Made by a program: the position numbers and the translations under genes. The notes under the pieces were generated by a model. That model saw only the letters and a list, made by a program, of their open reading frames with translations. It was not told the origin of the DNA and made no database searches. A stretch of 64,000 nt of DNA from an uncultured Planctomycetia bacterium. GTDB taxonomy: Bacteria; Planctomycetota; Planctomycetia; Pirellulales; PALSA-1355. Below are positions 3,112-48,662 of this stretch, in pieces (position 1 is the first letter of the stretch; every line of letters begins with the position of its first letter). Where the stretch lies: contig CAWDFN010000001.1 of NCBI GenBank assembly GCA_963801675.1, forward strand, positions 4,311,069-4,375,068, given 5' to 3'.

Positions 3112-3115
3112 GATA

Positions 3116-4630: not shown

Positions 4631-4977
4631 GCGAGTTGTCCTTGTTGACGTGTTGTGTTGACGGTGTTTGGAGTGTGAGTGACGTTGACTTTTTGCGCGG
4701 ACTCGGGCAGGACGATGCCCAGGTCGTCGTGCGGACGCGGAATGACTTGCACGCTGACGACTTCGCCGATGCGGCCGGCCGCGGCGGCGCCGGCATCGGT
4801 GGCGGCTTTCACCGCGGCCACGTCGCCGGTGACGAACGCGGTCACCAGACCGCTGCCGACTTTGTCCCAGCCGAGGAACTGCACGTTGGCCGCTTTCATC
4901 ATCGCGTCGCTGGCTTCGACCAGGGCGACGAAGCCCTTGGTCTCGATCATGCCGAGCGCTTCCACTGTCTTTGCCAT
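4627..4977 (-). CDS. BMC-H hexameric shell protein with a C-terminal tail; intact
   Basis: [86 protein letters not shown]... (tail of ORF 4627..5316). Its stop overlaps the start of the next BMC-H gene. Confidence 0.9.
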
Positions 4978-5039
4978 CTGAGGGTCTCCGGAGAAAAAAG
5001 GAAAAGGTAGTTGTTTCAACCGCTTGTTAATTGGGGGTG

Positions 5040-11559: not shown

Positions 11560-11854
11560 GAGACGGTCAGACGGAAGCGAGCCAGAAGGATTCCAAACCT
11601 CAAAGTAGACCAAGTGAGGGCGAGGTTTTCAATTGCACTCGGGGAGGCGTGGGAGAAGAGTGATGAACCACAAAGGCACCAAGGGCACCAAGGGAAGGAG
11701 ATGGACAGGCACGAACTGTTCGTCAGTGAACCTTCGCTTAGAATGGGTTGTCAAGCGGATGCGCATATTTGTCAACAGATTTGATTCTCAGATCGCTCGT
11801 CCTTAGCGCCGGACGGCTGGGCGGCCACGCGAGCTGGTCGATGGTAATCGAAAA

Positions 11855-12267: not shown

Positions 12268-12522
12268 ATGTCTACTTTTCCGCCGGACATTGAAGCTTAC
12301 GTTCAGCAGAAGATTGCCAGCGGGCAATTCCATTCGCGCGATGAGCTGGCGGTGGAAGCCGTGCGCGTTTACCGCGCGCTCGAAGCAAAGCATGCCCAAC
12401 TCAAATCCGACGTGCAGGCAGCCATCGACGAGTCCGACCGAGGGTTGAGCGTGCCCCTCGACATTGAGGCGATCAAAGCCCAGCTGATGGCGGAACTCGA
12501 CGGTAGCGGTCAAAGTGACTGA
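12268..12522 (+). CDS. parD: ParD-family type II antitoxin (RHH)
   Basis: MSTFPPDIEAYVQQKIASGQFHSRDELAVEAVRVYRALEAKHAQLKSDVQAAIDESDRG. This matches the ParD antitoxin pattern (xIxxQVxSGxYxSxSEVVRxALRLLEE-like). It overlaps parE by 1 nt. Confidence 0.8.
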   Translation: MSTFPPDIEAYVQQKIASGQFHSRDELAVEAVRVYRALEAKHAQLKSDVQAAIDESDRGLSVPLDIEAIKAQLMAELDGSGQSD

Positions 12523-12824
12523 TGCCTTGCGTCCTTCACACGCCGCGCGCGACACAGGATCTTGTAGACATCGGCCGGTATCTCGTCCAGGAGAGTCAAA
12601 GTCGGAATGTCGCGAAGCGTTTCCTGGATTTCATAGCCACCAAGTGCTCCGTCTACGCGACCGCCCCCGAGATCGGCGAGCTTTGTGTTGACCTGGCGCC
12701 GAATGTCCGGCGCTTCGCGGTGGGCAATTACGTTGTTTTCTATCGGCCCGTGCGCGGTGGCATCGAAGTGCTCCGTGTGCTACACGGCAGTCGTGACATT
12801 CCGGCCGCATGGGGAAGCCGTTAG
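12522..12824 (+). CDS. parE: ParE/RelE-family type II toxin
   Basis: MPCVLHTPRATQDLVDIGRYLVQESQSRNVAKRFLDFIATKCSVYATAPEIGELCVDLAPNVRRFAVGNYVVFYRPVRGGIEVLRVLHGSRDI. The C-terminal VxxVLHGxRD is typical of ParE. Confidence 0.8.
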   Translation: MPCVLHTPRATQDLVDIGRYLVQESQSRNVAKRFLDFIATKCSVYATAPEIGELCVDLAPNVRRFAVGNYVVFYRPVRGGIEVLRVLHGSRDIPAAWGSR

Positions 12825-22875: not shown

Positions 22876-24349
22876 TCAGGCCAGAATCTCGCGGATCACT
22901 TGCCCGTGCACGTCGGTCAGGCGGCGGTCGATGCCGTTGTGGCGGAAGGTGAGCTTCTCGTGGTCGATGCCCAGCAGGTGCAGCACGGTGGCGTGCAGGT
23001 CGTAGCAGTAGGTCGGTTTCTCGACGGCTTTGTACGACCACTCGTCGCTCTGCGCCGTAGGTGACGCCGCCCTTGATGCCGCCGCCGGCCAGCCAGGAGG
23101 TGAACGTGAACGGATTGTGGTCGCGGCCCTTGCTCCCCTGGCTGCACGGCATGCGGCCGAACTCGGTGGTCCAGATGACGATCGTGTCGTCGAGCAGGCC
23201 GCGGGCCTTGAGGTCCTTGATCAGCGCGGCGGCGGGCTGGTCCATGCTGGCGGCCCATCGTCGCCGTGGTCGCGGTCGAGGTCTTCGTGGCTAGTCCCAG
23301 TTGCGGCGCGGGAAGCCGTTGTCGGCGCCGCTCCAGACCTGCACGAACCGCACGCCGCGCTCGAGCAGCCGCCGGGCGATCAGGCAGTTGCGGCCGAAGT
23401 CCTCGGTGACTTTCTGGTCCAGTCCGTACAAACGCCGCGTGGCCTCGGTTTCGCCCGACGATGTCGAGCACTTCCGGCGCGCTGAGTTGCAGCCGGGCGG
23501 CCAGTTCGTAGCGAGGCGATCCGGGCGTCGAGCCGCGAGTCGCCGGCGCGGCTCGCCAGGTGCTCGGCATTCAGCTGCTTGAGCAGCTGCAAGCCCTCGG
23601 CGTCGCTTTGGCGGGTGACGAAGCGGGCGTCGGCGGGCGGAAACAGATCGGCGATCGGATTCTTCGCCGCCGGCTTGATCATCGTGCCCTGGTGGGCCGC
23701 CGGCAAGAAATCCGGCGCTCCAGTTGCCCGGCCCGTTGGGCGGAAAGCCGCGCGCGTCGGGCAGCACGACGAACGTCGGCAGGTTGTCGGTCAGGCTTCC
23801 CAGGCCGTACGAGATCCAGGCACCCATGCTCGGAAAGCCGGGCAGCACGAAGCCGGTGTTCTGCATGAACGTCGCCGGGCCGTGGACGTTCGACTTCGAG
23901 ACCATCGAGTGGATGAAGGCCATGTCGTCGACGCAGCCGGCCAGGTGCGGCACCAGGTCGCTCATCCACTTGCCGCACTGGCCGTATTGCTTCCAGGCCC
24001 AGGGGCTCGCCATGCAGTCGCCGGGCTTGCTCTGAAACAGCTCGACCTTTTCGCCCGGGTCGAACGGCTGGCCGTGCGGCTGGATCAGCTCGGGCTTGTA
24101 GTCGAACATGTCGCACTGGCTGGCCGCGCCCGACATGAAGAACTGCACGACGCGCTTGGCCTTGGCCGGATGGTGCAGCCCGCCGGCGGGCTGCGAGGCG
24201 TCTTTGGCGGCATGGTCCTGCGCCAGCAGTCCGTTCTCGGCCAGCAGCTGTGCCAGCGCGATGCCGCCCAGTCCGCCGCCCAGGTTCCAGAGGAACTCGC
24301 GCCGGCTGTTCGCAGGAGAACTGCGTTGCGTGTTGGGATGGTCGTTCAT
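22876..24349 (-). CDS. DUF1501 (sulfatase/alkaline-phosphatase-like) protein, paralog 1; about 6 frameshifts as sequenced
   Basis: [36 protein letters not shown] (Tat-like); [19 protein letters not shown]; [40 protein letters not shown]; [17 protein letters not shown]...[30 protein letters not shown]; C-terminus [44 protein letters not shown]. The pieces come from ORFs 23291..24367, 23380..23706, 22917..23570 and 21656..23245. Confidence 0.85.
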
Positions 24350-24356
24350 TGCGAAG

Positions 24357-27345
24357 TCAATCGACAAACACGAATTCGTTGCTGTTGAAGATCATGCGGC
24401 AGGCGTTGGCCAGGCCGAACTTGCCGGCATACTCGGCCAGCGCCGCGCGCTTCACGCTCGCTCGGCTCGCGGCCGAAGGCCAGCCGGTAGGCCGCCTCGA
24501 TCTGGCCTGGCAGGTCGCCGCGCATGTTTTTCAGCCGCTCGGCGAAATGCTCGGCCTGCCGCGTGGCCAGCGGGTTGTTCAACAGCGCCAGCGCCTGGAT
24601 CGAGGTCAACGTCGTATTGCGCTTGGGCGTCATGATCGACGGGTCGGCACAGTCGAGGCATTCCATGAACGGATCGGGCACGCTGCGAACCAAAAAGCGG
24701 TACACGCTCCGGCGGAAGCTGCGGGCGTCGTCGACGTCGAACCGCGTGTAGTCGTAAATCGGCGAATGATCGTCTTTGAAGAAGAACTGCTGCACCGATG
24801 GGCCGCCCATCGTCAGGTCGAGTTTGCCGGAGACCGCCAGCATCGCGTCGCGAATGCACTCGGCGTCGAGCCGCTGGCGGTTCATCCGCCACAGGTAGCG
24901 GTTGCCGGCGTCGAGCCGGGCGTGGTCGGCGTTGGCCTCCGACGATTGCCGATAGACGGCGCTGGTCACCAGCAGGCGGTGCAGCTTCTTGAGCGAGTGG
25001 CCGTTGTCGATCAGCCAGCCGGCCAGCCATTCGAGCAATTCTGGATGCGTCGGCAGCGAGCCCATGCGGCCGAAATCATTGGGCGTGTCGACGATTCCCT
25101 GGCCGAAATGATATTGCCAGACCCGATTGACGATCGAGCGCCGCACCAGGGCGTTGCGCGAATCGGCCAGCCAGCGGGCGAGCGCCGCGCGGCGCTGTGC
25201 CTCGTCGGCGGGATCGGCCAGCGCAAATGCCGCTTGCGGTCCGCGCACGCACGGCACGCCGCCTGGCGCGATCTGCTGCTGCGGGCTGCGGACGTCGCCG
25301 CGGGCCAGCAAGTGAATCGGCCGCGGAGCGCGCGGCTCGGCAAACGCGGCCGCGGCATAGACCATGGGCGGCTTGGGCAGCGCCGCGATTCGTGCGTCGA
25401 CGTCCTTCGAGCCGGCCTCGAGCAGGGCCAGCTCTTTGCGAGTGGCTTCGTCTGTGCGATCGTCGACGAGCTTTAGCCGCGCTTTGTTGCCCGCGTCGAG
25501 TTCCTGTTCGAGCGCGAGCCGGCGCGACGGTTGCGCTGAATCGCCGGAGTTGATCCGGGCAAGACTGCTGAATCCGTCGACGAGATTCTTCATCGCCCAA
25601 CTGGGCGGAGCCTCGATCGAATCGAGCGACGTGACGCTTTTGTCGGCCGCCAGGTTCTGCGAACCAGAAATCACCATAAGCTCCGACAGGGCGAAGATCC
25701 AATCGTTCGTACGTTTCCAAAGCTTCGTGGCGGTGACGCGGACGTAGCGGCCGGCGGCGCCGGACGTGGCAATGCGATAGGGTTTGTCGCCGGGATGCGG
25801 GAAATCGGCGGTCGTGTGGTCGACGAACGTGCGGGCTTCCGCAAAATCGGACGCGTCGGATACCTCGACCTTGAACCGCGTCGGAAATCCGAAACCCGGA
25901 CCGGGGTGGCCGCCATAGACGACGTGTGCCGGCACCAGCACGATCTGGTCGATCGTCGCGCGTGCACCCAAGTCGACCTGCACCCATTTTGTTTCGTTCT
26001 GAGCGGGCATGATCTGGCTGTGATAGCCGAGCGTCTTGCTGGGCATGTCGGCGGGCAGGGCGGCCAGTTCGGCCTTCCACGCGGCAAGCCGCTGGTCGAT
26101 CGCGGCGATTTCGGGACTCGTGATTTGCGCGAGCCGCTCGCGGATTGCCGATCGCTGTTTTTCCAATCGCGACTTTTCAACGGCCAGCTCGGCGCGCAGT
26201 TTGGCGATGCGCCGGTCGGCGTCGTACGGGCGGTCGGCCCGATCGACGCCGGCGAACACGGCTTGCAGGGCGTAGTAATCTTCCTGGCGGATCGGGTCGA
26301 ACTTGTGATTGTGGCAGCGAGCGCAGTGGACCGTCAGGCTGGCGAAGGTGGACATGGTGTTGGCCACCATGTCGTCGCGATCGTTCGAGCGGGCGATGTC
26401 CTTGTCGACCGTCCCCTCGCGCAGTTCGACGTGTCCGACGAAGTCCCACGGCCCGGCGGCGATGAAGCCGGTGGCCACGGTGGCCTGCGGGTCGTCGGGA
26501 GACAACACGTCGCCGGCGATTTGCTCGGCGACGAAGCGGTCGTACGGCTTGTCTTGGTTGAGGCTGTCGATCACGTAATCGCGATAGGGCCAGGCGTTGG
26601 GGCGCGGCTTGTCCTTGTCGTAGCCGTGCGACTCGCCGAAATGGACGACGTCGAGCCAGTAGCGGCCCCAACGCTCGCCGTAGCGCGGCGAAGCGAGCAA
26701 CCGATCGACCAAGATTCCGTAGGCGTCGTCGCGGTTGTCGTGCAAAAACGCATCGATCTCCTCGGGCGTCGGCGGCAGGCCGTGTAGGTCGTAAGTCAAG
26801 CGGCGGATCAGCGTGCGGCGGTCGGCCTCGGGCGATGGGGCGAGATGCTGTTCGCGCAATTTGGCGAGAATGAACGTGTCGACCGGCGTGCGAATCCAGG
26901 GGTCGTCTTGCGGCGGAACGCTCACTTTGGCCAGCGGCACCAGCGACCACCAATTTGTGTCGATCGGCTTCTTGTCGGTCAGCACGAGTCCCTCGGGCCA
27001 CTTCGCGCCGGCGGCGATCCAACCGCGGACGGCGGCCACTTGCTCGGGTGAAAGGGGCGGCGCGTCCTTGGGCATTTCGGGCTTGTCGCCCGAGATGTAT
27101 TCGACGAGCAGGCTTTCGTCGGGTTTGCCGGGCGTGATTGCCGGCCCGCTTTCGCCGCCGGCGGAAAACGCCTTGCCATCGGTCAGGGCCAGTCCGCCCT
27201 TGGGCTTGGCACCCTGGTGGCAGGCCACGCAATGCCGCTCGAAAATCGGCGCGACCTGCTGCCGAAAAATCGTCCCGTCGTCGGCGCGTAGCGGCGTGAC
27301 GGTGAAAATCGAGACGGCAAGAAAAAGGGACACGGTGCGCGGCAT
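24357..27345 (-). CDS. PSCyt1-DUF1549-(F5/8 type C-like)-DUF1553 protein; 1 frameshift near the 3' end
   Basis: MPRTVSLFLAVSIFTVTPLRADDG; FERHCVACHQGAKPKGGLALT (CxxCH); WWSLVPL...DTFILAKLREQHLAPSPEADRRTLIRRLTYDLHGLPPTPEEIDAF; HCARCHNHKFDPIRQEDYYALQAVFAG; discoidin-like KWVQVDLGARATIDQIVL. The C-terminus reads ALAEYAGKFGLANACRMIFNSNEFVFVD after a one-base repair near 24441-24445. Confidence 0.85.
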
Positions 27346-27459: not shown

Positions 27460-29516
27460 ATGGCCCATGAGATTGAAACTCACGAACTGATCGCGTGCGG
27501 GCTTGACGCGGCGGACGCCGAGTCGCTGACGGCGCCGGTAAATCGCGCGCTCGCGCTGCCCAGCGTTGAGGCCTGGCGCGAGATTTCGAGCGGCATTTTG
27601 CGGCCGGAGCATCCATTCGCGTTGCACAAGTTTTTGTTCGCCGCGGCATTCAGCGGCCGGCGTGCCGACGATCCTCCGGCGCCGGCTTGGACGCCGACCG
27701 ACGAGCAGATTCGCGCATCGAACGTGGGACGCATGATCAAGGAGCGGGGCTTTGCTGACGTCGCACAACTGCACGCCTGGTCGGACGCCGATCGCGGCGA
27801 GTTTTGGGGACAGATGGTCGAGCGATTAGGAATCGCGCTGGCGAAGCCGCCGACGAGCGTTCTCGACGTGTCCGACGGCGTCGAGCGGCCCAAGTGGCTG
27901 GCGGGAGCGAGACTCAATATCGCGGAGAGTTGTTTTCAGGCCGACCCGGGCAAGCCGGCAATTGTCTATCACGACGAGAGCGGAATGACGAGTACCGTCA
28001 CGTACGGACAGTTGTCGAAGCTGGTCAACCGGGTGGCCAACGGGTTACAGGCCGCCGGCTTTCGGCCCGGCGACGCGCTGGCGATTTATTTGCCGATGTC
28101 GGCCGAAGCGGTGGCTATTTACTTGGGCATCGTTCGCACCGGCTGCGTGGCGGTCTCGATCGCTGACAGTCTGGCGGCCGAAGAGATCGCGGTGCGTCTG
28201 CGGCTTTCGGAGGCCAAGGGTGTCTTCACGCAGGACGTTCTGTTGCGCGGCGGCAAGCCGTTGCCGCTGTATGCCAAGGTGGTCGAGGCCGGGCGCCGGT
28301 GACGGTGGTGATTACTGGCGCCGAATCGACTCAGCCGGAAAAGTTGCGGCACGGTGACGTCAAGTGGGCGAGCTTTTTGAGCGACAACAGGCAGTTCGAG
28401 CCCTATATCGCCGAGCCGCACGAACCGACCAACATCTTGTTTTCGTCAGGCACGACGGGCGAACCGAAGGCAATTCCGTGGACGCACCTGACGCCGATCA
28501 AGTGCGCGGTCGACGGCTATCTGCATCAAGACGTGCACGCCGACGATCGCCTGGCCTGGCCGACCAACCTGGGGTGGATGATGGGGCCGTGGTTGATCTA
28601 TGCCAGCCTGGTGAATCGGGCCACGATGGCCCTCTATGGCGGAGCGCCGACGGGCAGGGATTTTGGCGAGTTCGTGCACGACGCCCAAGTCACGATGCTG
28701 GGGGTGATTCCCAGCCTGGTGAAGACTTGGCGGGCGACTGACTGCATGCGCGGGCTCGATTGGAGCCGCGTGCGTCGGTTCAGCTCGACCGGCGAGTGTT
28801 CCAACGCCGACGACATGCTGTACCTGATGAGCCTGGCGGGCTACCGGCCCGTGATTGAATACTGCGGCGGCACCGAGCTTGGCGGCGGATACATCGGCAG
28901 CACGATGGCCCAGCCGAACGTGCCGGCCGCGTTCTCGACCGCGTCGTTCGGCGTCGGCTTGGTGATGCAGCGCGACGACGACACGGCGATCGAGGCGGGG
29001 GAAATCTTTCTGGTGCCGCCGGCCATCGGCATGTCGACCGAACTGCTGCATCACGATCATCAGGCGGTCTATTTCGACGGCACGCCGCTCGGTCCGGGCG
29101 GCGAAACGCTGCGCCGGCACGGCGACGCGATGGAGCGGCTGAGCGGCGGCTACTATCGCGCGCAGGGACGCGTCGACGACACGATGAACCTGGGCGGCAT
29201 CAAGGTCAGCTCGGTGGAAATCGAGCGGGTCGTCAACGGCGTCAGCGGAATACGCGAGTCGGCCGCCATCGCCGTTTCGCCGGCGGGGGGCGGCCCGAGC
29301 ACGCTGTGGATCTTCGCGGTGCTGCGCGAGGAGTGCCAGGCGAGCGCTGCCGAGTTGCGCGGGCAGTCGCAAGCGGCGATCCGCCAACACTTGAACCCGC
29401 TGTTCGAGATTCAAGAGTTCGTGCCGATCGACGCCCTGCCGCGCACGGCTTCGCACAAGATCATGCGACGGTTGCTGCGAGACGACGCGACTCGGAGGCA
29501 AGCGGGTTCGGGGTAG
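27460..29516 (+). CDS. AMP-dependent synthetase/ligase (acyl-CoA synthetase-like); 1 frameshift near 28295
   Basis: ORFs 27460..28302 and 28299..29516 join. They contain NILFSSGTTGEPKAIPWTH (AMP-binding signature), YCGGTELGG, RVDDTMNLGGIKVSSVEIE and LPRTASHKIMRR. Confidence 0.8.
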
Positions 29517-29648
29517 CCCTGGCAATTTCCGTGCGATGATTGACTTTGCCTTGCAGGTCCGTTAGTTTTCGTCGGTGGTCGATGGTCGAACGAATTGGCC
29601 CTCGACAGCGGCTCTGTGCACGGCACTAGGCACCTTCAAGAGATGGCG

Positions 29649-30767
29649 TATGAGCAGCGATGCGCAGTCGATTCGGTACGGCATGTTCATCATGCCGTTT
29701 CATCCGCCCGCCAAGCCGCCGGCCCAGTGCTACGACGAAGATCTGGAGCTGATCGTCGCGGCCGAGGAGCTGGGCTTCTCGCGAGTTCTGGATCGGCGAG
29801 CATCACACGATGAAGTACGAGAACATCGTGATGCCCGAGATCTTCATCGCCCGCGCGCTGGGCGAGACGCAGCACGATTCGGCATGGGGCCCGCGCCGGT
29901 CTGCCTGCAGCAGCACCATCCGGCCCACGTGGCCTGCCGGCTGGCGTTTCTCGATCACCTGTCGAAGGGGCGGCTCAACCTCTGCTTCGGCGCCGGCAGC
30001 GTCACGGCCGACCAGGAGCTGTACGGCTGCGAGCCGAAGAACGCCGCCGAGATGGTCGACGAGGCGATCGAGACGATTCTGTATCTGTGGACGCCACGAT
30101 CCGCCCTACGAGGTCGAGGGCAAGTACTGGAAGATCAAGCTGACGAAAACGGTCGACACGGAGACCGGCATCGGCTACATCCCCAAGCCGCTGCAAAAGC
30201 CGCACCCGCCGATCGCCGTGCCGGGCATGAGCCGCAACTCGCCGAGCATGAAGACCGCCGCCGGCGCGGGCATCAGCCGTTCGGCCATTGCCTGATGCCG
30301 GGCAACGTGCTGGCCGACACCTGGAAGACCTACGAAACGGCCGCCCTCGAGGCCGGCCGCACAGCCGAAGCGCTCCGACTGGAAGGTCGCCCGCTCGATC
30401 TTTCTGGCCGACACCACCAAGGAAGCCCGCCGACGGGCGCGCACCAACTCGCTGGGCAACAACTACGAGTACATCGGCCGGCTCTTCGACAAGGGACTGG
30501 GCCGCAAGATCTACAAGCGCGACCTCAACATGAGCGACGCCGACTGCAATCTCGATTACCTGATGGACGAGCAGATCATCGCCGGCGACGTCGACGAAGT
30601 GCTTGCGGCGGCTGCTGGTCATGATCGAGGAGACCGGCACGTTCGGCACGCTGGTGCTGATGAGCTACGACTGGGACGACAAAGCAAGCTGGCTGCGCAG
30701 CATGGAGCTGTTCGCCCACGAGCTGATGCCTGCGCTGAACAAGGCGGTGTTGGGAGTGGGTGTTTAG
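29649..30767 (+). CDS. Luciferase-like (LLM class) flavin-dependent monooxygenase/oxidoreductase; about 6 frameshifts as sequenced
   Basis: MSSDAQSIRYGMFIMPFHPPAKP...EELGFSEFWIGEHHTMKYENIVMPEIFIARALGET (after repair at ~29787); GPAPVCLQQHHPAHVACRLAFLDHLSKGRLNLCFGAGS; PPYEVEGKYWKI...YIPKPLQKPHPPIAVPG; C-terminus DEQIIAGDVDEVLRRLLVMIEETGTFGTLVLMSYDWDD...ELMPALNKAV. Confidence 0.7.
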
Positions 30768-30861
30768 TGGTTGGTGAATGGCGTGCTGTGTCGGCGCTGG
30801 TTTGATGACGCTGGCGCGGGTACGCATGCGGACGACGCGTTTGGGCATCGCGTGAACAACC

Positions 30862-32879
30862 ATGGACCCCTCCACTCCAATTCCTAACCCCCCAACCCTG
30901 GACCCTAGCCCCCAAGTTCGCGTTCCCGCTGGGCACCTTCCGCCTTGGACGGTGGGTGAATTGCCGAATCCGCCGCGCGCGGGTGGCGAACTTGGATCAA
31001 GCTGATCGGGCCGGGGGTGTTGTTGGCCGGCGCGTCGGTCGGCTCGGGCGAATGGTTGTTCGGTCCGGCCGTCAGCGCGCAGTATGGCGGAACGCTGCTG
31101 TGGCTGGCCGGCCTGAGCATTCTGGGCCAGGTGTTTTGCAACCTGGAGATGATGCGGTATGCCGTGTATTGCGGCGAGTCGATCATCGTCGGCTATCTGC
31201 GCACCTGGCCTGGCCCGCGGTTTTGGATGTTGTGGTACGCGATCATGGACGTGGCCGCGATCTGGCCATTCAACGCGTCGAACGCGGCCGTGCCGTTGGC
31301 GGCCGCCCTGTTGGGCCGACTGCCTGGCACCGGCTCGGTGGACATTCTTGGCGTCAGCGTGCCCGAGTGGCAATTGGTCAAAATGCTGGGCTACGCGATT
31401 TTCTTGCTGGCCTTTGTGCCGCTGATTTTCGGCGGCACGATCTACAAGATGCTCGAGCGCGTCATGGCGATCAAGCTGGTGCTGGTGCTGGGCTATCTTT
31501 TGTTCTTCGCCTTGTTCATGGTCTCGGCGGCGAATGCCTGGGAGGTGGTGTCCGGATTCTTTCGCGTCGGCACGGTGCCGCTGGCGGCCCAGACGATCGT
31601 GGCGGGGCGGCACTTTACCGTGGGCGAGCGCGACGGCCCGGCCCGGCTGTCGATCCGCGGCACGATGGAGGAAGGAAAGAACGGAACAACTCCGCTGGTG
31701 GTGACGTACCTGGTCGAGACGGAGCCCGACGGCAAACGAAGGGTCGAAAAGTACGACCGCCTGGCAGCCGTGCCGGTTGATTTGCGGGACAAATTCGAGC
31801 AGATCAAGCGGCGCGCGGTCACTCTGGCACAGCCGGGTCGATTCACGGTGGACGACGTCGACGATGAGGCCGCGATTTCGGTGACCGGCAGGATCGACGA
31901 ATCGCGCAACTGGCACGCCGAGAGTTTCGTCGTGGCGCCGCACGACGAATCGGCAACCGAGTACCAGCGGCTGGCCGACGTGCCCGAACCGTATCGCGGT
32001 CGCTTCGTCGAGCTCGTCGAACATCAGGGCCTTCATCTGGTCGGATTGATCGGCTACTATCGCGAGCATGGCGCGCTGCCCCCTTTGGATTGGGCCATGC
32101 TGGCCGCGTTCGCCGCGATTGCCGGCGCGGGGGGGATGACCAATACGTTGTTTTCGAATTTCGCGCGCGACGCGGGCTGGGGAATGGGAGCCCGCGTTGG
32201 GACCATTCCCAGCGCGATCGGCGGACGGCAGATTCAGCTTTCGCACGTGGGCGAGGTTTTTCCGCTCGACCACGTCAACCGCTCGCGCTGGCGGGGCTGG
32301 ATGCGGCACGTGCGGCGCGATCAGTTGGCGATTTGGATGGCTGCCTCGGTGGTCGGCATGGCGCTGCCGTGCATGCTGTCGTTGGAGTTCATTCGCCACG
32401 CGCCGGTCTCGGGCGACCGCGTGGCGGCGATGACCGCCGAAGGCATGGCCGAACGGTTTCCCCAGTACTCTGGGATCTTGTGGGCTGCCACGCTGTTGTG
32501 CGGCTTTCTCGTGCTCGCGCCGGGACAGATCCTCTCCGGCGACATGATCTCGCGGCGCTGGACCGACATCATCTGGACCGCCAACAGCCGGGCGCAACGG
32601 CTGTCGGGTGATCGCGTGCGTTGGATCTATTACAGCATTCTCACGCTGTACGGCTTTTGGGGCTTGTTCGCGCTGACGATGTTCGATCCGCTGCAAATCG
32701 CCAAAATTGGCGCGGTGTTGATGAACGTCGCGCTGGGCTGGACGGCGTTGCATTCCGTGTACGTGAATCGCCGGCTGCTGCCGGCCGAGTTGCAGTCGCC
32801 GTTATTGATGCAACTGGGCTCGATCAGCTGCGGCATCTTCTTTCTGGGAATCAGTTTGATCGTGTTTTTCAACATGTGA
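30862..32879 (+). CDS. Nramp-like polytopic membrane transporter carrying a ~175-aa soluble insertion; 1 frameshift near 30985
   Basis: MDPSTPIPNPPTLDPSPQVRVPAGHLPPWTVGELPNPPRAG joins ORF 31017..32879: WIKLIGPGVLLAGASVGSGEWLFGPAVSAQYGGTLLWLAGLSILGQVFCNLEMMRYAVYCGE. This resembles the Nramp/MntH first-helix region. There are multiple hydrophobic helices. The family assignment is from memory, not a search. Confidence 0.5.
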
Positions 32880-32894
32880 GGCGGAGGAGACGGT

Positions 32895-33722
32895 GTGACA
32901 CGCGTCGACGCCCATCTGCACGTGTGGCAGGCAGCCGAGGGGGAGACGCCCGGCGTGCAAACGATCGTGCCGCCACAAACCGACGTGCCGATCGAACGGG
33001 CGAGCCGGGTCATGCTCGAGCACAAGATCGATCGGGCCGTGCTGGTCCAGCCGGTATTTCGCGGCGAAGACAACAGCTATGTGGCCGCCAGCGCACGGAA
33101 CGATCCGGCGCGGTTCGCGGCCGTGTGCGTCGTCGATCCTCGCGTTGCCGGGGCCGAGCAGAGGCTTGCCGATTGGGTCGAGCAGGGCTGCCGCGGATTG
33201 CGGCTGCGGCCGCGCATCGCCGACGAGGCCGACGCGTTTGGCGACCCGGCGACGTATCCGCTGTGGCAGGCCGCCCAGCGGTTGCGGGTTGTCGTCAGCG
33301 TGTTGGCGGAACCACGGCACGCGCCTGCCATCGGCGCGCTGGCCGAACGATTTCCCGACGTGTCGATCGTGGTCGATCACATGGGACACCCCGACCCGGC
33401 CGCCGGCGCGCAAGACGACGGCTTTCGGCAGCTCATCGCGCTGGCTCGCCATCCGCGCGTGTTCGTCAAAGTTAGCGGATTTTATCACTTTTCCACGCAG
33501 GCGTTCCCGTTTGCCGATTGCTGGGACCTGGTCGAGGCCCTGTACGAGCACTTTGGTCCGCGGCGGCTGCTGTGGGGGAGCGACTTTCCACACGTCGAGG
33601 CGACGTGCGGATACTCCCAAAGTTTGCGGCTGCCCGACGCCGCGCTGGCCGATTGGATCGCCAACGAGCGCGATCTGGTGATGGGTGAAAATGCGGTGAA
33701 GTTGTACTGGCCGACGAGGTGA
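32895..33722 (+). CDS. Amidohydrolase_2-family metal-dependent TIM-barrel hydrolase (lactonase/decarboxylase-like)
   Basis: Intact ORF with a GTG start preceded by GGAGGAG. Motifs: VDAHLHVW, VVDHMGHP, FVKVSGFY, LLWGSDFPH. Confidence 0.75.
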   Translation: MTRVDAHLHVWQAAEGETPGVQTIVPPQTDVPIERASRVMLEHKIDRAVLVQPVFRGEDNSYVAASARNDPARFAAVCVVDPRVAGAEQRLADWVEQGCRGLRLRPRIADEADAFGDPATYPLWQAAQRLRVVVSVLAEPRHAPAIGALAERFPDVSIVVDHMGHPDPAAGAQDDGFRQLIALARHPRVFVKVSGFYHFSTQAFPFADCWDLVEALYEHFGPRRLLWGSDFPHVEATCGYSQSLRLPDAALADWIANERDLVMGENAVKLYWPTR

Positions 33723-33751
33723 ATCGCGCGCCGAGCGAGATCGAATCACTA

Positions 33752-33821
33752 ACCCGACGCGCAACATCGAACAGCGCCAACGAAGGCGAACCACGAAGAA
33801 TCCTCGCTGGCGCGTCGGGTT
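33752..33821 (+). terminator. Long stem-loop (12-bp perfect outer stem, inner 5-bp stem) followed by a T-rich tract; probable terminator or structured 3' element
   Basis: AACCCGACGCGC (33752-33763) pairs with GCGCGTCGGGTT (33810-33821). Inner CAGCG..CGCTG pairing is also possible. It is followed by cgtattttg and lies 30 nt after the amidohydrolase stop. Confidence 0.4.
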
Positions 33822-33983
33822 CGTATTTTGCGCGCGACCAACGCTGGCCACGGCCAATGGCCGGTACGGATTGATTGACAGCAAAACGCGGAATCGGATA
33901 CCATTTTGGCATGCGGTCGATCCGTCGCGGTGCAGGACGCGCGCGGCGGTGAGACGTCGTTTCACTGGGGGCGTAATCTGACC

Positions 33984-35324
33984 ATGTTGTCCATTCTTGG
34001 CCGACCGTATCGCCTGTGCGATGGCGTTTCGCGGCGCAGCTTTTTGAAGTTGGGCTCGCTGGCCATGGGTGGCCTGACGCTGGCCGATATTTTGCGCGCC
34101 GAAGCGTCGTCCGACGCGCCGCGCCGGCACAAGTCGGTGATCATGATCTTCCTGCCGGGCGGACCCTCGCACATCGACATGTACGACCCGAAGCCCGAGG
34201 CGCCGGTTGAGGTGCGGGGCGAATTTCGGCCGATCCGCACAGCCGTTCCCGGCATCCAGGTTTGCGAGCATTTGCCCAAGCTGGCCCGCATCATGGACAA
34301 GCTGGCGCCAATCCGCACCATCATCGGCGGGCCCGACGACCACGCCTCGCACATGTTGCTCACCGGCTGGGACCGCCAGGGTCCGCAAGCCGCGGGGAAT
34401 TGGCCGACCGTGGGCTCGTTCGTTTCCAAGCTGCAAGGGCCTGTCGATCCGACGGTGCCCCCGTACGTGGGCCTGGCCGCCAAGATGATCCATCCGCCGT
34501 ACAACGATCCCGGGCCGGGTTTTTTGGGGGCCGCGCATTCGGCGTTCACGCCCGACGGCCATTCGCTGGCCAATATGACGCTCAACGGCGTCACGCTCGA
34601 TCGGCTGGCGGACCGGCAGACGCTGCTGGCGCGGTTCGACCGGCTGCGAGAGGAAGTCGACAACGGCGGCGCGTTGCGCGGGCTCGACGCGTTTCAGCAG
34701 CAAGCAATGCGCGTGATCACGTCGTCGAAGCTGCGCGACGCGCTGGACATTTCGCGAGAACCGGCGGACGTGTTGGCTCGTTATGGGCCGGGCGATCCCA
34801 GCTTGATCCCGGGTTTCAACGCGGCGCCGAAGATGACCGAACACCTGCTGGCGGCGCGGCGGCTGGTCGAGGCCGGCGCGCGATGCGTCACGCTGGCCTT
34901 CGGCGGCTGGGATTGGCACGCCACGAATTTCTTGGGGATGCGAAAGGAACTGCCGTTGTTCGATCACGGCGTAGCAGCCTTGGTCGAGGATTTGCACGCC
35001 CACGGGCTCGACAAGGACGTGCTGGTGGTGGCCTGGGGCGAAATCGGGCGCAGCCCGCGCGTCAACCCGGCGGCCGGCCGCGACCATTGGCCCACCGTTT
35101 CGTGCGCCCTGTTGGCCGGTGGTGGTTTGCGGACCGGGCAGGTGATCGGCCGCACGAACCATCTGGGCGAAATGCCGCTCGATCGACCGGTCCACGTTCG
35201 CGAGGTGCTAGCCACGATCTACCACCACTTGGGCATCAACGCCTGCGAGACCACCTTGCCCGACCTCAACGGCCGGCCCCGGTATGTGGTCGAAGATTAC
35301 CGACCGATCGGCGAGTTGCTATAA
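33984..35324 (+). CDS. DUF1501 protein, paralog 2 (Tat signal); intact, with no adjacent PSCyt/DUF1553 partner
   Basis: MLSILGRPYRLCDGVSRRSFLKLGSLAMGGLTLADIL; FLPGGPSHIDMYDPKPEAP; GRDHWPTVSCALLAGGGLRTGQVIG; C-terminus GRPRYVVEDYRPIGELL. Confidence 0.85.
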   Translation: MLSILGRPYRLCDGVSRRSFLKLGSLAMGGLTLADILRAEASSDAPRRHKSVIMIFLPGGPSHIDMYDPKPEAPVEVRGEFRPIRTAVPGIQVCEHLPKLARIMDKLAPIRTIIGGPDDHASHMLLTGWDRQGPQAAGNWPTVGSFVSKLQGPVDPTVPPYVGLAAKMIHPPYNDPGPGFLGAAHSAFTPDGHSLANMTLNGVTLDRLADRQTLLARFDRLREEVDNGGALRGLDAFQQQAMRVITSSKLRDALDISREPADVLARYGPGDPSLIPGFNAAPKMTEHLLAARRLVEAGARCVTLAFGGWDWHATNFLGMRKELPLFDHGVAALVEDLHAHGLDKDVLVVAWGEIGRSPRVNPAAGRDHWPTVSCALLAGGGLRTGQVIGRTNHLGEMPLDRPVHVREVLATIYHHLGINACETTLPDLNGRPRYVVEDYRPIGELL

Positions 35325-35436: not shown

Positions 35437-36423
35437 ATGCCGAGTGTGTTGATCACGACCGAGGCGCTGCGCAAGGCGCCGGGTAAGCATGCGACGATCT
35501 TGCGAGACGCCGGTTATGAGATTCGTTTCCCGGTCAAGACCGTGTTGCTTTCGGAGGAGGACACGCTGGAGGCGATGCAAGGCTTTGTCGCCGTGATCGC
35601 CGGCAGCGAGCCGTACACCGATCGCGTGCTGGCGGGACTGCCGCAGTTGCGCATCATTTCGCGCAACGGCGTGGGCTACGATCGCATCGACGTGCCGGCG
35701 GCCACGCGTCGCGGCGTGGCCGTCACGATCACGCCTGAGGGCAACCACCAGGCCGTGGCCGAGCACGCCATGGCCATGATGCTGGCCGTGGCCCGCAGCG
35801 TGGTGCAAAACGCCGTCGATACCCGAGCCGGCCAGTGGCGTCGTCGGTCGATGCTGGTGCCGCTGCGCGGTAAGACGCTGGGCATTGTCGGGCTGGGGCG
35901 GATCGGCCGCAGCGTGGCGGTGCGCGCTTCGGCGTTTGGAATGCAGCTGGTGGCGCATGAGAAATTTCCGGATGTCGAATTCGTCAAGAAATACAACGTT
36001 GAACTGGTCGATCTCGACACGCTGATGTCGCGGTCCGATTTTGTCACGCTGCACACGCCGATGTCGAGCGAGACCGAAGGGCTGATCAATCGCCGGACGC
36101 TGTCGCGGATGAAGCCGGGCGGTTTTCTGATCAATACCGCGCGCGGCGGACTGGTCAATGAGGCCGACCTGATCGACGCGCTGCGATCGGGTCATCTGGC
36201 TGGCGCGGGGCTCGACGTGCTGGTCGTCGAGCCGCCGGCGGCGGATCATCCGCTGTTGGCGATGGAAAACGTGATCGTCAGCCCGCACGTGTCGGCACTC
36301 GACGGTCAGGCGGTCGAGGACATGTCGGTCGGCGCGGCGCAGAATATCGTCGACGTCTTGGCCGGCAAGTGGCCGACGGCCGCGCTCATCAATCCCGACG
36401 TAAGGGCCGCATGGAAAGCCTGA
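35437..36423 (+). CDS. D-isomer-specific 2-hydroxyacid dehydrogenase (phosphoglycerate-dehydrogenase-like)
   Basis: Intact ORF with GKTLGIVGLGRIGRSVAVRA (Rossmann), NTARGGLVNEADL and GAGLDVLVVEPP...SPHVS. Confidence 0.85.
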   Translation: MPSVLITTEALRKAPGKHATILRDAGYEIRFPVKTVLLSEEDTLEAMQGFVAVIAGSEPYTDRVLAGLPQLRIISRNGVGYDRIDVPAATRRGVAVTITPEGNHQAVAEHAMAMMLAVARSVVQNAVDTRAGQWRRRSMLVPLRGKTLGIVGLGRIGRSVAVRASAFGMQLVAHEKFPDVEFVKKYNVELVDLDTLMSRSDFVTLHTPMSSETEGLINRRTLSRMKPGGFLINTARGGLVNEADLIDALRSGHLAGAGLDVLVVEPPAADHPLLAMENVIVSPHVSALDGQAVEDMSVGAAQNIVDVLAGKWPTAALINPDVRAAWKA

Positions 36424-37628
36424 AGATCACGGCGCTGGAGACGATTCTCGATCCCGAACGGCCCTTGTTGATGTGGGTTCGCGTGCATACCGACGCGGGG
36501 CTCGTCGGGCTCGGCGAAAGTTTTCAATCGCCCGACGCGATTGCGCGTCGTGCACGGCACGCTGGCCAAGGTGCTGCTCGGAGCGGACCCGACGCGCATC
36601 GAGCTGCTGTGGCATCACATGTTCAAGGTGGTGCACTACGCCGGGTATGCCGGCGCCGAGATGCGGGCGATCAGCGCGATCGACATTGCGCTGTGGGACC
36701 TGTTGGGTCAACTGACCGAGCGGCCCCTCTACGATCTGCTGGGCGGAGCCTGCCGCGACCGGATTCCGCTGTACAACACGTGCGCCAGCTTTGCGCCGTA
36801 CAACGACCACGAATTGTTTCATGATGACCCGGCCCGGCTGCGCGCGAGCTGTTGGCCTCGGGCGTGCGGGCGATGAAGATCTGGCCATTCGACGATCTGG
36901 CCCGGCGGACGCTGGGGCAGAACATCAGCCCGGCGGACTTGGAGTATGGTGTGTCGCGATTTCGTGCGATCCGCGAGGCGGTCGGCGACGAGATCGAGAT
37001 CGCGCTCGAAGGGCACTGCCAGTGGAACTTGCCCAGCGCGATCCGCATCGCCCAGGCGGTCGAGCCTTACCGGCCGATGTGGCTGGAAGAGTTGATGCTG
37101 CCCGACGATCCGCAAGCCACGCGTCAATTGCGCGCCTCGACGCGCACGCCTCTGGTCAGCAGCGAGCGGCTGATGACGCGCTGGGGCTATCGCCCGGTGA
37201 TCGAGACCCACGCGGCGGACATCGTGATGTTTGACATTGATTGGGCCGGCGGCCTGACGGAAGCCCGCAAGATCGCGGCGCTGGCCGAGAGCCACCAGTT
37301 GCCGGTTGCTCCGCACAATCCGGGCGGACCGGTGAGCAACGTCGTCACGGCCCATTTTTGCGCAAGCGTTTACAACTTGTTCATCATGGAGAGCGTGCGT
37401 GCGTTTTATCTCACCTGGTTCGGCGACGCGCTGACGCACAACCTGGTGGCCGTCGACGGCCATTTTCCGCTTCCAAAGGGACCGGGATTGGGCACCCACC
37501 TGAGCCCGCAGTTTTTGGCCCGCGAGGATCTGGTCCGCGAGACCTCGAACGAAGAACAAGGCCCGCTGTCCGGCTATGCTGTCGGCAATCCGTACCGCGC
37601 GGGGAACCCTTGGCAGCGGAAGGCGTAG
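36411..37628 (+). CDS. Enolase-superfamily (mandelate racemase/muconate-lactonizing family) sugar-acid dehydratase-like enzyme; 2 frameshifts as sequenced
   Basis: MESLKITALETILDPERPLLMWVRVHTDAGLVGLGE; AISAIDIALWDLLGQLTERPLYDLLGG; MKIWPFD; EIALEGHCQWN; PMWLEELMLPDD; DIVMFDIDWAGGLTEARKIAALAESHQLPVAPHNPGGP. Breaks lie near 36540 and 36845. The start overlaps the upstream dehydrogenase by 13 nt. Confidence 0.8.
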
Positions 37629-47151: not shown

Positions 47152-48662
47152 CCCTCTCCCGCCGGCTGCACTTTCGGAGAAGTCAGATTAGGGAATTGGG
47201 TTTGGTCAATAACGTAGGGTGCAATAAAAATGGCTCTCCAACCACGGTGTTGTATTGGCGTACCGCCCGTGAATCGGAGAGCCAAGGATGGCTGGTCGAA
47301 ATCCGTATTGTGTCCGGCGTCTGCCGGAGGAGTGGTCGGAGTGGGTGGAACTGTTGACGCCTGTGCTCGACAGCCGTACGGCGTGGCGTTTGCCAATCGT
47401 GCTGGCCGGGTTGTTGCTGGCCAGGGGGCGTCGCACGGTGACGACCTGGCTGCGTGCTCAAGGTATCTTGGACGACTTCGACGACTATTATTACTTCCTG
47501 GCCAGCCTGGGACGCAAGATCGAACCGTTGGCCACGCGGTTGTTTCAGCTGTTGCTTTTGCATCTGCCGACCGGCGAGCGGATCGTGCTGGCGCTGGACG
47601 ACACGCCCACCCGGCGTTACGGGCCGAAAGTCGAAGGGGCAGGCCTGCATCACAATCCGACCTCGGGGCCGGACGATCACAAGTTTATTTACGGTCACAT
47701 TTGGGTGACGTTGGCCTGGGTCGTGCGTCATCCGCTGTGGCACACGATCGGATTGCCGTTGCGTGCCTTGTTGTATGTCAAAGCCAAGGATCTGCCCAAG
47801 TTGCACCCGCGTTGCCGCTGGACGTTCCGCACCAAGCTCGAGATGGCGGCCGAACTGGTGAAATGGGCCGAAAACGTGGTCCGTCCGCTGGGCAAGCCGC
47901 TGTGGATCGTGGCCGATGGAGCGTATGCGTATCGGCCCCTGCTGCGAGAAATCTTGCCGCTGGGTGTGACGTTTGTCAGCCGACTGCGCCGCGACGCGGG
48001 CCTGCGCACCCTGCCGCCGCCGCGCCCCCAGGGCCATCGCGGCGGAACGCGCAAATATGCGCGCAAGCGATCTCGCTGGCCAAGCGTGCTGCCCATCGCA
48101 AAGGTTGGCAGCAAACCGAAGTGGTGCTGTATGGACGGCCAGTCATCAAAACCTACAAAACATTTTTGGCCACCTGGCCGGTGGTGGGTGGAGTGTTTCG
48201 CGTGGTGATCGTTCGCGAGCCGGATCGCTGGGAGCCGCTCTTCACGACCGATCCCGATGCCAGCGTGGAAAGCATTCTGGAGTGCTTCGCCGATCGCTCG
48301 TCGATCGAGCAGGTGTTCCACGACATCAAGGAAGTCTGGGGCGCCGGCCAGCAACAAGTCCGCAACCTGTTTACCAACGTGGCCTGCTACCATCTGAACT
48401 TGTGGATGCACACGCTGGTGGAATTGTGGGCATGGAACAAAAGCCACCAGGAACTTCGCGACCGATCGCTGTCGCCGTGGGACTGCCTGCCGCGCCGCCC
48501 GAGCCACGCCGACCGGCGCAACGCCCTGCGACGAAACTGTTTCCAAAACGAATTGTCGGCCGTTGAACTGAAACACCAGATTACACCACGAATCAAAAAA
48601 CTGTTGAAAACCTTCCTCTCCCTAGCCGCCTAACGTCCAAAAGTGCAGCCAAAGGGAGAGGG
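47152..48662 (+). mobile_element. Insertion sequence (~1.5 kb, IS701/IS4-like DDE transposase) with 28-bp imperfect terminal inverted repeats
   Basis: IRL at 47152-47179 is CCCTCTCCCGCCGGCTGCACTTTCGGAG. The reverse complement of IRR at 48635-48662 is CCCTCTCCCTTTGGCTGCACTTTTGGAC (23/28 identical). I found no clear target-site duplication. Confidence 0.75.
47288..48633 (+). CDS. DDE transposase (IS701/IS4-like); 1 frameshift near 48056-48062
   Basis: MAGRNPYCVRRLPEEWSEWVELL...LALDDTPTRRYGPKVEGAGLHHNPT...IYGHIWVTLA...WIVADGAYAYRPLL (ORF 47288..48208) continues as ISLAKRAAHRKGWQQTEVVLYGRPV...FADRSSIEQVFHDIKEVWGAGQQQVRN (tail of ORF 47230..48633). Candidate D, D, E residues are present. Confidence 0.8.

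Follow-up and report, generated by a model that had tools for sequence, protein, structure and literature searches.

In the camphor pathway encoded by the CAM plasmid of Pseudomonas putida, type II Baeyer-Villiger monooxygenases (BVMOs), namely the 2,5- and 3,6-diketocamphane monooxygenases, are followed by a coenzyme A (CoA) ligase and lactone opening. The 3,6-diketocamphane monooxygenase was the first type II Baeyer-Villiger enzyme to be structurally characterised (PMC4631483), and the camphor diketocamphane monooxygenases use an unlinked flavin reductase (PMC6352141). Transporters of the Nramp fold also have a catabolic precedent in PxpT/YcsG (TCDB 2.A.55), which belongs to a GntR-regulated 5-oxoprolinase operon in Corynebacterium glutamicum and Bacillus subtilis and is needed for 5-oxoproline use (PMC13274462). 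Here we compare with these systems a four-gene cluster in a stretch of 64,000 nucleotides (nt), hereafter the window, from an uncultured planctomycete (assembly GCA_963801675.1, contig CAWDFN010000001.1, positions 4,311,069 to 4,375,068). The cluster encodes an acyl-CoA ligase, a luciferase-like monooxygenase (LLM), an Nramp-fold transporter (NRAMPL) and a hydrolase of the Amidohydro_2 family (Amido2). Catabolic operons built around a two-component flavin monooxygenase are familiar; the locus is a variant of them, and its most unusual component is the Nramp-fold transporter with a structurally unmatched periplasmic domain.

Our overall account, in which we place about even confidence, is that the cluster comprises two transcription units of one carbon-catabolic locus in a Pirellulales-type planctomycete: the ligase, and an LLM-transporter-Amido2 operon under a conserved promoter that would be repressed by a GntR/FCD regulator in relatives. 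The genes and the predicted regulatory element between them are as follows.

27460-29516, + strand: AAE17/18-type acetoacetyl-CoA-synthetase-like acyl-CoA ligase, about 685 residues after repair of one frameshift
29540-29591, + strand: predicted promoter-operator unit of the LLM operon, between the ligase and the LLM, recognised by cross-locus conservation
29650-30767, + strand: LLM, flavin mononucleotide (FMN)-dependent, 370 residues after repair of six insertions or deletions (indels)
30862-32879, + strand: NRAMPL, an Nramp-fold (LeuT-fold) secondary transporter, about 672 residues after repair of one frameshift
32895-33722, + strand: Amido2, a cog3618-type hydrolase, 275 residues, reading frame intact

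All four genes lie on the + strand at the coordinates of the preliminary description, whose family-level identifications were borne out by Pfam (ligase, LLM, Amido2) and NCBIfam (transporter). The intergenic gaps measure 133, 94 and 15 nt; the last two agree with that description, which had put the first at 132 nt.

The division into two units is suggested by gene order in related genomes. A scan of a genome collection with a profile of the transporter yielded 80 loci, onto which the four proteins and the regulator encoded downstream were mapped; a second search started from the LLM, and about 20 LLM-containing loci were examined in total. Loci from these scans are given L numbers here. The order ligase-LLM-NRAMPL-Amido2-GntR occurs in L001/L002, L003 and L006, and the order LLM-NRAMPL-Amido2-GntR, with no ligase, in L004, L005 and L022, while seven further loci have LLM-(HpcH)-NRAMPL. 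L163, found from the LLM side, has LLM-Amido2 only; L164 has LLM-Amido2 with a D-isomer-specific 2-hydroxyacid dehydrogenase (2HADH) gene and NRAMPL on the opposite strand; and L167 reads HpcH-NRAMPL-2HADH-LLM-Amido2. The recurrent set therefore consists of LLM, Amido2, transporter, 2HADH and HpcH aldolase, in variable order. LLM, transporter and Amido2 occur together in at least nine independent loci, and their order is kept within the Pirellulales clade (L001/L002, L003, L004, L005, L006 and L022). Since the same order recurs in independent genomes, the three-gene arrangement is far from chance, and we take it to be a conserved operon of soil and water planctomycetes, with the ligase as a separately transcribed neighbour.

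All four genes stand together only in the window, L001/L002, L003 and L006. Counting the window, the ligase is present in four of the eight closest loci and absent from L004, L005, L022 and L163. A metagenome scan with the ligase for more four-gene examples returned only relatives of 46-59% identity, none with the cluster; across the resulting 80 metagenome loci of the wider ligase family, the ligase was never adjacent to an LLM, transporter or Amido2 gene (0 of 80). The ligase appears to have joined the LLM locus only in a narrow lineage. The four-gene unit proposed in the preliminary description fails for the ligase on account of its absence from half of the closest loci, its lack of adjacency in the wider family and the promoter-operator unit before the LLM. 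Neighbourhood conservation, which that description had named as a check, is found for LLM, transporter and Amido2 and not for the ligase.

The promoter-operator unit was recognised from a block upstream of the LLM in eight close loci (alignment A3), which reads TTGAC[AT], 17 nt, TAG[GT]TT, 8 nt, followed by GGTCGACCGTCGAC or a close variant of it; TTGAC and TAG.TTTCG show no change across the eight aligned loci. In the window, the -35 element TTGACT (29540-29545) is separated by a 17-nt spacer from a -10-like TAGTTT (29563-29568), and the operator-like GGTCGATGGTCGAAC lies 8 nt past the -10 at 29577-29591, with two mismatches to GGTCGACCGTCGAC. The promoter motif occurs once in the window. At the LLM promoter, the exact 14-mer GGTCGACCGTCGAC stands 8 nt past the -10 in L003, L004 and L022; at the remaining five loci, which include the window, it is degenerate. 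The promoter of the gntR gene in L001, L003, L004, L005, L006 and L022 (L001 12851-12919 and equivalents) reads TTGACA-N17-TA[GC]GAT with the exact GGTCGACCGTCGAC 8 nt later, so that the exact 14-mer is present there in all six loci carrying a GntR/FCD gene. This shared architecture of the LLM and gntR promoters implies autoregulation, and from its conservation and position GGTCGACCGTCGAC is the predicted operator of a GntR/FCD repressor acting on the LLM operon and on its own gene. No copy of the operator was found upstream of the ligase. As to separate promoters and terminators between the genes, which the preliminary description had offered as evidence against a single unit, the promoter-operator unit lies between ligase and LLM, and no terminator-like site was found in any of the three intergenic gaps.

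No gene for GntR, HpcH aldolase or flavin reductase was found anywhere in the 64-kb window. Compared with its relatives, this genome appears to have lost the GntR/FCD regulator gene, so the LLM operon is probably deregulated here or controlled in trans.

The LLM matches Pfam Bac_luciferase (PF00296, E = 1e-38). Of all solved structures, much the closest to it is the oxygenating subunit of 3,6-diketocamphane 1,6-monooxygenase (PDB 4uwm, E = 6e-45), with 32.6% identity over 350 positions in a full-length alignment (residues 9-364 against 4-372). In L009 and L012, a flavin reductase gene (PF01613) lies directly upstream of the orthologous LLM, which argues for a two-component enzyme, and we regard the LLM as the oxygenase half of such a system, related by sequence to 3,6-diketocamphane monooxygenase. 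The LLM is also the most conserved protein of the set: more than 120 database clusters share 76% identity or more with it, and Pirellulales, Gemmataceae, Planctomycetaceae and a Latescibacteria metagenome-assembled genome (MAG) are among the sources named for them. A lactonase-type hydrolase recurrently adjoins it.

In the window that hydrolase is Amido2, which matches Pfam Amidohydro_2 (PF04909) at E = 7e-49 (167.5 bits against a cut-off of 26.4). Its best PDB matches are 2ffi, a putative 2-pyrone-4,6-dicarboxylate hydrolase (E = 7e-25), 4i6k, and 4dlf, an L-fucono-1,5-lactonase (E = 5e-11). The translation contains the motifs DAHLHVW, with an N-terminal H-x-H, and WGSDFPH, with a C-terminal Asp; these His and Asp residues we take to be catalytic. 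Amido2 is probably a lactonase of the cog3618 (LigI/fuconolactonase-type) group. With the members of that group (LigI, L-fucono-1,5-lactonase and 4-sulfomuconolactone hydrolase), it shares the Amidohydro_2 barrel, the H-x-H and Asp motifs and the nearest structures. Unlike them, it is by score neither of the two named NCBIfam equivalogs with which it was compared, 4-sulfomuconolactone hydrolase and L-fucono-1,5-lactonase, as it falls far under both cut-offs (NF042924, 83.2 against 500; NF052480, 77.7 against 400), and no aromatic meta-cleavage genes (LigAB, LigC, LigJ, LigK) lie near it. The preliminary description had called the hydrolase metal-dependent, a label not supported here; cog3618 members such as LigI are not known to need a metal.

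The ligase matches Pfam AMP-binding (E = 3e-48), ACAS_N and AMP-binding_C, and its translation contains the adenylation motifs SSGTTGEPK and PRTASHKIMRR in intact form. Its best PDB matches are acetyl-CoA and acetoacetyl-CoA synthetases (E = 1e-42 to 1e-52), and it is 62-77% identical to the ligases of L001 and L006; the L001 orthologue carries a precomputed match to the N-terminal domain SAM_AAE17_18 (PF27750). Among NCBIfam models, the best match is acetoacetate-CoA ligase (NF002937), at 256.9 against a cut-off of 639, with TIGR02188 at 224 against 725. The most frequent neighbours in the wider ligase family are thiolase (10 loci), a 3-hydroxybutyrate-dehydrogenase-like short-chain dehydrogenase/reductase (7 loci) and 3-hydroxyacyl-CoA dehydrogenase (5 loci); these fit the best, sub-threshold match to acetoacetate-CoA ligase. 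In its ACAS_N/AMP-binding/AMP-binding_C architecture, the SAM_AAE17_18 domain of its L001 orthologue, its best NCBIfam match and its family neighbours, the ligase resembles AAE17/AAE18 and acetoacetyl-CoA synthetase; it differs in scoring below the acetoacetate-CoA ligase cut-off and in lying beside an LLM operon only in a narrow lineage. Plant AAE18 has been reported to share indels with planctomycete homologues (PMC3493653).

The transporter is related to described Nramp proteins in fold far more than in sequence. No Pfam family, PF01566 included, matched it at E ≤ 0.01, and among the matches listed for its relatives a precomputed PF01566 match was present in 4 of 120. NCBIfam model NF037982 ('Nramp_1'), whose cut-off is 50 bits, gave a score of 134.5 bits over two stretches with an insert between them. 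A search of PDB sequences with the transporter profile returned nothing at E 0.01 or at E 10. The AlphaFold model (predicted local distance difference test (pLDDT) 76, predicted template modelling score (pTM) 0.79) gave as its best Foldseek matches DraNramp, EleNRMT, BfraNramp and a YcsG model, with TM-scores (TMt) of 0.65-0.75 at about 10% identity (8e6l, E = 2e-5 and TMt 0.71; 7qia, TMt 0.67; 10ky, TMt 0.75). In this fold search the YcsG model, 9a52, had the highest query-normalised TM-score (0.47) and the lowest root-mean-square deviation (5.3 Å).

The Slc11 family is defined by Asp-Pro-Gly-Asn in transmembrane helix 1 (TM1) and by Ala...Met-Pro-His in TM6, which form the metal and proton site (PMC9606685). 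An hhalign comparison of the family profile with E. coli MntH aligned the sequence GSGE in TM1 with DPGN of Slc11, an alignment that covers TM1 only and is weak (E = 0.084); read by eye and without an alignment, TM6 has AGGM(S/T)N where Slc11 has Met-Pro-His. A sequence link to solved Nramps was considered and rejected, as the PDB profile search was empty and the hhalign match limited to TM1 and weak. The term 'Nramp-like' used in the preliminary description thus stands for the fold and not for the signature motif, which is GSGE rather than DPGN. Between TM5 and TM6 lies a β-rich insert of about 165 residues, which Nramp topology would place in the periplasm; it is built of two β4-α repeats, is modelled with confidence (pLDDT 83) and had no match above TM 0.26 in a search of the PDB. 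Polo-box and PUR-like matches of the insert were set aside, as they reflect only the repeated topology of β-sheet plus helix. In sum, the family shares with Slc11/Nramp (MntH) and NRMT proteins the LeuT-type fold and an NCBIfam 'Nramp_1' score above cut-off, and differs from Slc11/Nramp in having GSGE for DPGN, M(S/T)N for MPH and an extra periplasmic domain, in that PF01566 was not detected in the window protein, and in occurring in contexts of catabolism, not of metal homeostasis.

The family is large: over 1,100 database clusters matched at E ≤ 0.001. Most loci from the genome scan belong to Planctomycetota and Acidobacteriota. Its clades track distinct catabolic contexts, which are LLM with Amido2; fumarylacetoacetate hydrolase (FAH) with E1 dehydrogenase and another AMP ligase; triple sodium:solute symporters (SSF); and HpcH aldolase. 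Several transporter paralogues occur per genome, each in a different catabolic context.

Three kinds of neighbourhood outside the window are of note. In L165 (4772-9492, Gemmataceae-type) and L168 (5855-9329), an orthologous LLM (79% identity) is flanked by major facilitator superfamily (MFS) transporters and a cupin, with no Nramp-like gene; the MFS genes beside the LLM look like non-orthologous transporter replacement. In Acidobacteriota (Terriglobia and Versatilivoraceae MAGs; L059, L062, L066-L070, L075 and L081), co-oriented sodium:solute symporter genes precede the Nramp-like transporter; two of these loci, mapped gene by gene, have two and three symporter copies directly upstream, and the result is a conserved block of three or four transporter genes. 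In a second conserved neighbourhood of the family, in Planctomycetota (L021, L023, L024, L030, L032, L036 and L018), an FAA-hydrolase-family gene and a different AMP-dependent ligase lie on one side of the transporter, and a fused E1 (alpha-beta) thiamine-dependent dehydrogenase and a protein of about 650 residues with no Pfam match on the other.

The tracking of catabolic contexts, the replacement of NRAMPL by MFS transporters and the PxpT/YcsG precedent lead us to suggest that the transporter imports a substrate. More specifically, we put forward tentatively, as a possibility rather than an expectation, that this family of about 660 residues consists of importers of small organic substrates (a lactone, keto acid or hydroxy acid), that the insert serves as a substrate-capturing lid and that here the transporter feeds a Baeyer-Villiger-type LLM and a lactonase. 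Like PxpT/YcsG, it would be an Nramp-fold transporter in a catabolic operon with a GntR-type repressor, in that case for a small cyclic (lactam) carboxylate. Unlike the family here, PxpT has 436 residues and no large loop corresponding to the 165-residue periplasmic insert; the partner enzymes are wholly different, and no PDB Nramp chain is detectable by sequence from our family.

The locus as a whole is best read as a module that breaks down a ketone or lactone-forming compound, by analogy with the camphor pathway. In this scheme the transporter would import a small oxygenated compound, and the LLM, with FMNH2 from an unlinked flavin reductase, would convert a ketone to a lactone in a Baeyer-Villiger-type reaction or perform some other oxygenation. 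The cog3618 hydrolase would open the lactone to a hydroxy acid, which 2HADH and, in relatives, an HpcH/HpaI aldolase could take through a 4-hydroxy-2-oxo acid to pyruvate and a small acid or aldehyde; the ligase, where present, would form the CoA ester of a short (keto)acid product. What the sequences show are the gene identities at family level, the synteny, the promoter-operator element and the probable assembly errors; each catalytic step, the substrate and the transporter cargo are inferred. The preliminary suggestion that a lactone-like substrate is processed oxidatively or hydrolytically fits a BVMO as best solved relative of the LLM and a cog3618 hydrolase as its neighbour, the chemistry itself being conjectural. 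Points of likeness to the camphor pathway are the full-length match of the LLM to 3,6-diketocamphane monooxygenase, the separate flavin reductase (adjacent in L009 and L012) and the three enzyme classes by which, in both, a ketone would pass through a lactone and an acid to a CoA ester (PMC4631483, PMC6352141). Points of difference are the identity of about 33%, the absence here of terpene-pathway genes (P450cam, dehydrogenases, OTEMO), a cog3618 amidohydrolase as lactone opener, 2HADH and HpcH aldolase as partners, which point to a small hydrophilic substrate, and a chromosomal locus in a planctomycete host. Riboflavin/lumichrome catabolism, which also involves a pyrone hydrolase, an aldolase and acetoacetate (PMC12746152), was considered as a link and set aside as chemical analogy only, with no shared genes shown.

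Several observations weigh against parts of this account. Common ancestry accounts for part of the conservation of context within clades. Judged by E. coli rules, the -10 hexamer of the LLM promoter is weak, and a generic sigma-70 promoter scan missed it because TAGTTT matches TATAAT at three of six positions; the element rests on cross-locus conservation and not on that scan. The LLM falls under every curated NCBIfam subfamily cut-off (best TIGR03619, 93.5 bits against 166.9, and TIGR03558, 87 against 166.95), so that the subfamily assignment which the preliminary description had called for placed it in no curated NCBIfam subfamily and gave a type II BVMO as its nearest solved relative. Its identity to the camphor enzyme is 33%, which makes Baeyer-Villiger chemistry no more than an analogy. 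The window lacks a flavin reductase, GntR and HpcH aldolase, which leaves the proposed route incomplete in this genome. The indels in the genes were judged to be probable errors on the evidence of the assembled sequence. Finally, the transporter keeps the TM6 methionine and has an invariant Glu at the TM1 break.

These two residues and the report of B. subtilis YcsG as a Mn2+ importer (PMC10448178) make metal transport possible, and the main rival to our account retains the same catabolic module and makes the Nramp-fold protein an importer of divalent metal (Mn2+, Mg2+, Co2+ or Fe2+). It would then supply cofactor, not carbon, to the co-encoded metal-dependent enzymes (HpcH aldolase, MR_MLE and possibly the hydrolase). 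The closest folds (Nramp/MntH and NRMT), the name of the NCBI model ('Nramp family divalent metal transporter') and the methionine within AGGM(S/T)N all agree with such a role. The HpcH, FAH, E1 dehydrogenase and MR_MLE families use divalent cations, and members of all four are frequent neighbours of the transporter. The substitution of GSGE for DPGN, the failure to detect any PDB Nramp sequence even at E 10 and a large periplasmic insert with no parallel in metal-transporting Nramps tell against a metal importer, as do the MFS transporters in the equivalent place in L165 and L168 and the presence of several paralogues per genome in different catabolic contexts, which would be unusual for such a protein. 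We favour an organic substrate because of the MFS replacement, the several paralogues in different contexts and the loss of DPGN, none of which is decisive, and regard metal import as rather unlikely.

A second rival concerns the chemistry. The LLM may not be a Baeyer-Villiger enzyme, and the locus may instead encode a non-phosphorylative route for a sugar or sugar acid, running through a dehydrogenase, a lactone, Amido2, an MR_MLE dehydratase, HpcH aldolase and 2HADH, in which the LLM would have an accessory role in hydroxylation, dehydrogenation or desulfonation. The relatives of Amido2 do include L-fucono-1,5-lactonase, and MR_MLE, 2HADH, HpcH and GFO/IDH/MocA genes are syntenic with the operon or recurrent around it. 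GntR/FCD regulators are typical of sugar-acid regulons. LLMs also include lactone-forming dehydrogenases and sulfonate monooxygenases, and the window protein has weak NCBIfam matches to several such subfamilies. An accessory role is improbable for the most conserved protein and anchor of the recurrent set, MR_MLE is absent from several versions of that set (L163, L164 and L167), and a type II BVMO is clearly the nearest of the solved structures; we consider this route unlikely and retain the ketone or lactone scheme above.

The reading frames raise a different question, as eight indels of one or two bases interrupt three of the four genes: one in the ligase (near 28290-28300), six in the LLM and one in the transporter (near 30975-30985). 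A DNA alignment with five orthologous LLM genes placed the LLM indels at about 29779, 29877-29878, 30093, 30261, 30360 and 30601 (in order, +1, +2, +1, -1, +1 and +1), none of them inside a homopolymer run. Pseudogene decay was considered first, given the eight indels and the missing gntR: once the GntR regulator and the aldolase had gone, real frameshifts would have accumulated in ligase, LLM and transporter. Besides the clustering of the indels in three adjacent genes outside homopolymers, decay would account for the absence of gntR, one PSD1/DUF1501 pair and HpcH compared with L001 and L006, and for the two mismatches in the remaining operator.

Equally dense frame breaks in an essential gene and in unrelated genes of the window speak against it. 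An IleS-type class-I tRNA synthetase gene (tRNA-synt_1 and Anticodon_1; 8700-11630, - strand) runs through all three frames with a dozen or more indels, such that Pfam finds tRNA-synt_1 profile positions 4-186, 207-265 and 285-405 and both halves of Anticodon_1 in different frames. The Pfam matches of the upstream DUF1501 gene (- strand) are split over two open reading frames (ORFs), and the downstream MR_MLE gene is likewise broken. A frame-segmentation hidden Markov model based on codon position found 34 same-strand frame switches in the 64 kb, concentrated at 1-6, 8-10, 22.9-23.7, 28.3-30.6 and 52.8-53.5 kb. Once repaired, the LLM has no stop codons, is 85-87% identical to its orthologues and evolves under purifying selection at their level, with a ratio of nonsynonymous to synonymous substitution rates (dN/dS) of 0.09-0.17 against 0.07-0.11 among intact orthologues. 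L163, a nanopore assembly (record name ending 'np1212'), has DUF1501 genes fragmented in a similar way. Given the same damage in the IleS-type gene and elsewhere and the normal dN/dS of the repaired LLM, the eight indels are most probably errors of an indel-prone assembly and the genes intact in the organism; we hold decay to be very improbable. Public annotation of the source contig gives the transporter as a truncated protein of 620 residues. As a practical warning, runs of frameshifts in indel-rich long-read assemblies mimic pseudogene decay.

The weakest alternative, that four unrelated genes merely share a strand, draws on the absence of the ligase from half of the closest loci, its unrelated neighbours in 80 wider loci and the promoter between ligase and LLM, and can safely be set aside in view of the occurrence of LLM, transporter and Amido2 together in at least nine independent loci, their other order or orientation in L164 and L167 and the conserved cis-regulatory element common to the core in the clade closest to the window. 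The coincidental neighbourhood that the preliminary description had allowed for is thus excluded by recurrent synteny, shuffled versions included, for the three-gene core, and is a fair description of the ligase relative to that core.

The cluster is flanked by genes typical of planctomycetes, and followed by a stretch in which the DNA departs from that of its relatives.

About 22879-24376, - strand: frame-broken DUF1501 gene of the upstream flank, 79-91% identical to L006 590-2092
24346-27345, - strand: PSCyt/PSD1 protein, divergent from the ligase, 77% identical to L006 2099-5107
33748-33824, + strand: stem-loop, a candidate terminator, seen as an inverted repeat after Amido2
33875-33904, + strand: promoter-like site ahead of the downstream DUF1501 gene (TTGACA, 18 nt, TACCAT)
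33984-35324, + strand: DUF1501 protein (Pfam DUF1501, E = 7e-84)
35437-36423, + strand: 2HADH (Pfam 2-Hacid_dh_C, E = 3e-62)
36411-37628, + strand: enolase-superfamily (MR_MLE) enzyme, frame broken near 36850-36876

DNA homology to L001 and L006 ends at about 33713 and restarts at about 33980. The intervening 266-bp stretch (33714-33979), which includes the stem-loop, has no counterpart in the relatives and replaces gntR, PSCyt/PSD1 and the first DUF1501 gene. The strong stem-loop that the preliminary description had placed at 33752-33821, after the last gene, is confirmed by the inverted repeat and by its folding: the arms (33748-33762 and 33810-33824) are 15 nt long, 93% complementary and 47 nt apart, and the structure folds at -48.4 kcal/mol (z = -2.95 against shuffled sequences). 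After the stem comes CGTATTTT. A REP-like repeated element was considered for the stem-loop and rejected, as the arm sequence recurs in the window no more often than chance would allow. The site at 33875-33904 is the best sigma-70-type match between 27000 and 36500, agreeing at 10 of 12 positions.

The upstream flank (PSD1 and DUF1501) is syntenic with L006 and L163, the order in L163 being FIST, DUF1501, PSD1, LLM. Downstream, the DUF1501 gene at 33984-35324 is 77-82% identical to L001 17856-19196, L006 17806-19161 and L005 12405-13745 and is the orthologue of the second DUF1501 gene downstream of the operon in relatives. The 2HADH is 75% identical to the copies in L001 and L004, and its homologues adjoin LLM, Amido2 and transporter in L164 and L167. 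The MR_MLE enzyme, whose MR_MLE_N and MR_MLE_C domains lie in two different frames, is 68-69% identical to L004 19705-20934 and L022 19771-21000. Pairs of PSCyt/PSD1 and DUF1501 genes stand on one or both sides of the operon in nearly all close relatives (L001 13684-19196; L003-L007 and L022; in the window, 22879-27345 and 33984-35324). This association with the LLM operon may be functional, or may reflect the mere abundance of both families in planctomycetes.

Elsewhere in the window, positions 1-6400 (- strand) hold a bacterial-microcompartment-type locus with EutN/CcmL vertex proteins, acetate kinase, aldehyde dehydrogenase, a PduL-type phosphotransacylase (PTAC) and an RpiB-like protein, which we take to resemble the planctomycete fucose/rhamnose microcompartment. 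A 777-residue 'ORF' within it (1981-4311) fuses matches to acetate kinase, EutN and Aldedh, presumably through frame errors. A ParE-type toxin gene (12522-12821, + strand; PF05016, E = 3.5e-18) lies in a short stretch of lower GC content (0.59) with small neighbouring ORFs and is probably part of a type II toxin-antitoxin pair. At 47288-48633 (+ strand), two overlapping ORFs each hold part of a DDE-superfamily transposase gene (DDE_5, E = 2.6e-23).

Much complex organic matter is broken down by planctomycetes and Acidobacteria, and most of their catabolic genes are unassigned. If the organic-substrate reading of the transporter is true, the Nramp branch of the APC superfamily would gain a novel transport function as well as a novel accessory domain, and members of this family are probably mis-annotated as metal transporters in public databases. 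The locus offers a compact and testable module, with a candidate promoter and operator, a predicted repressor and an unusually conserved monooxygenase. Once its ligand is identified, the GntR/FCD repressor would disclose the substrate and so annotate the conserved gene set wherever it is present.

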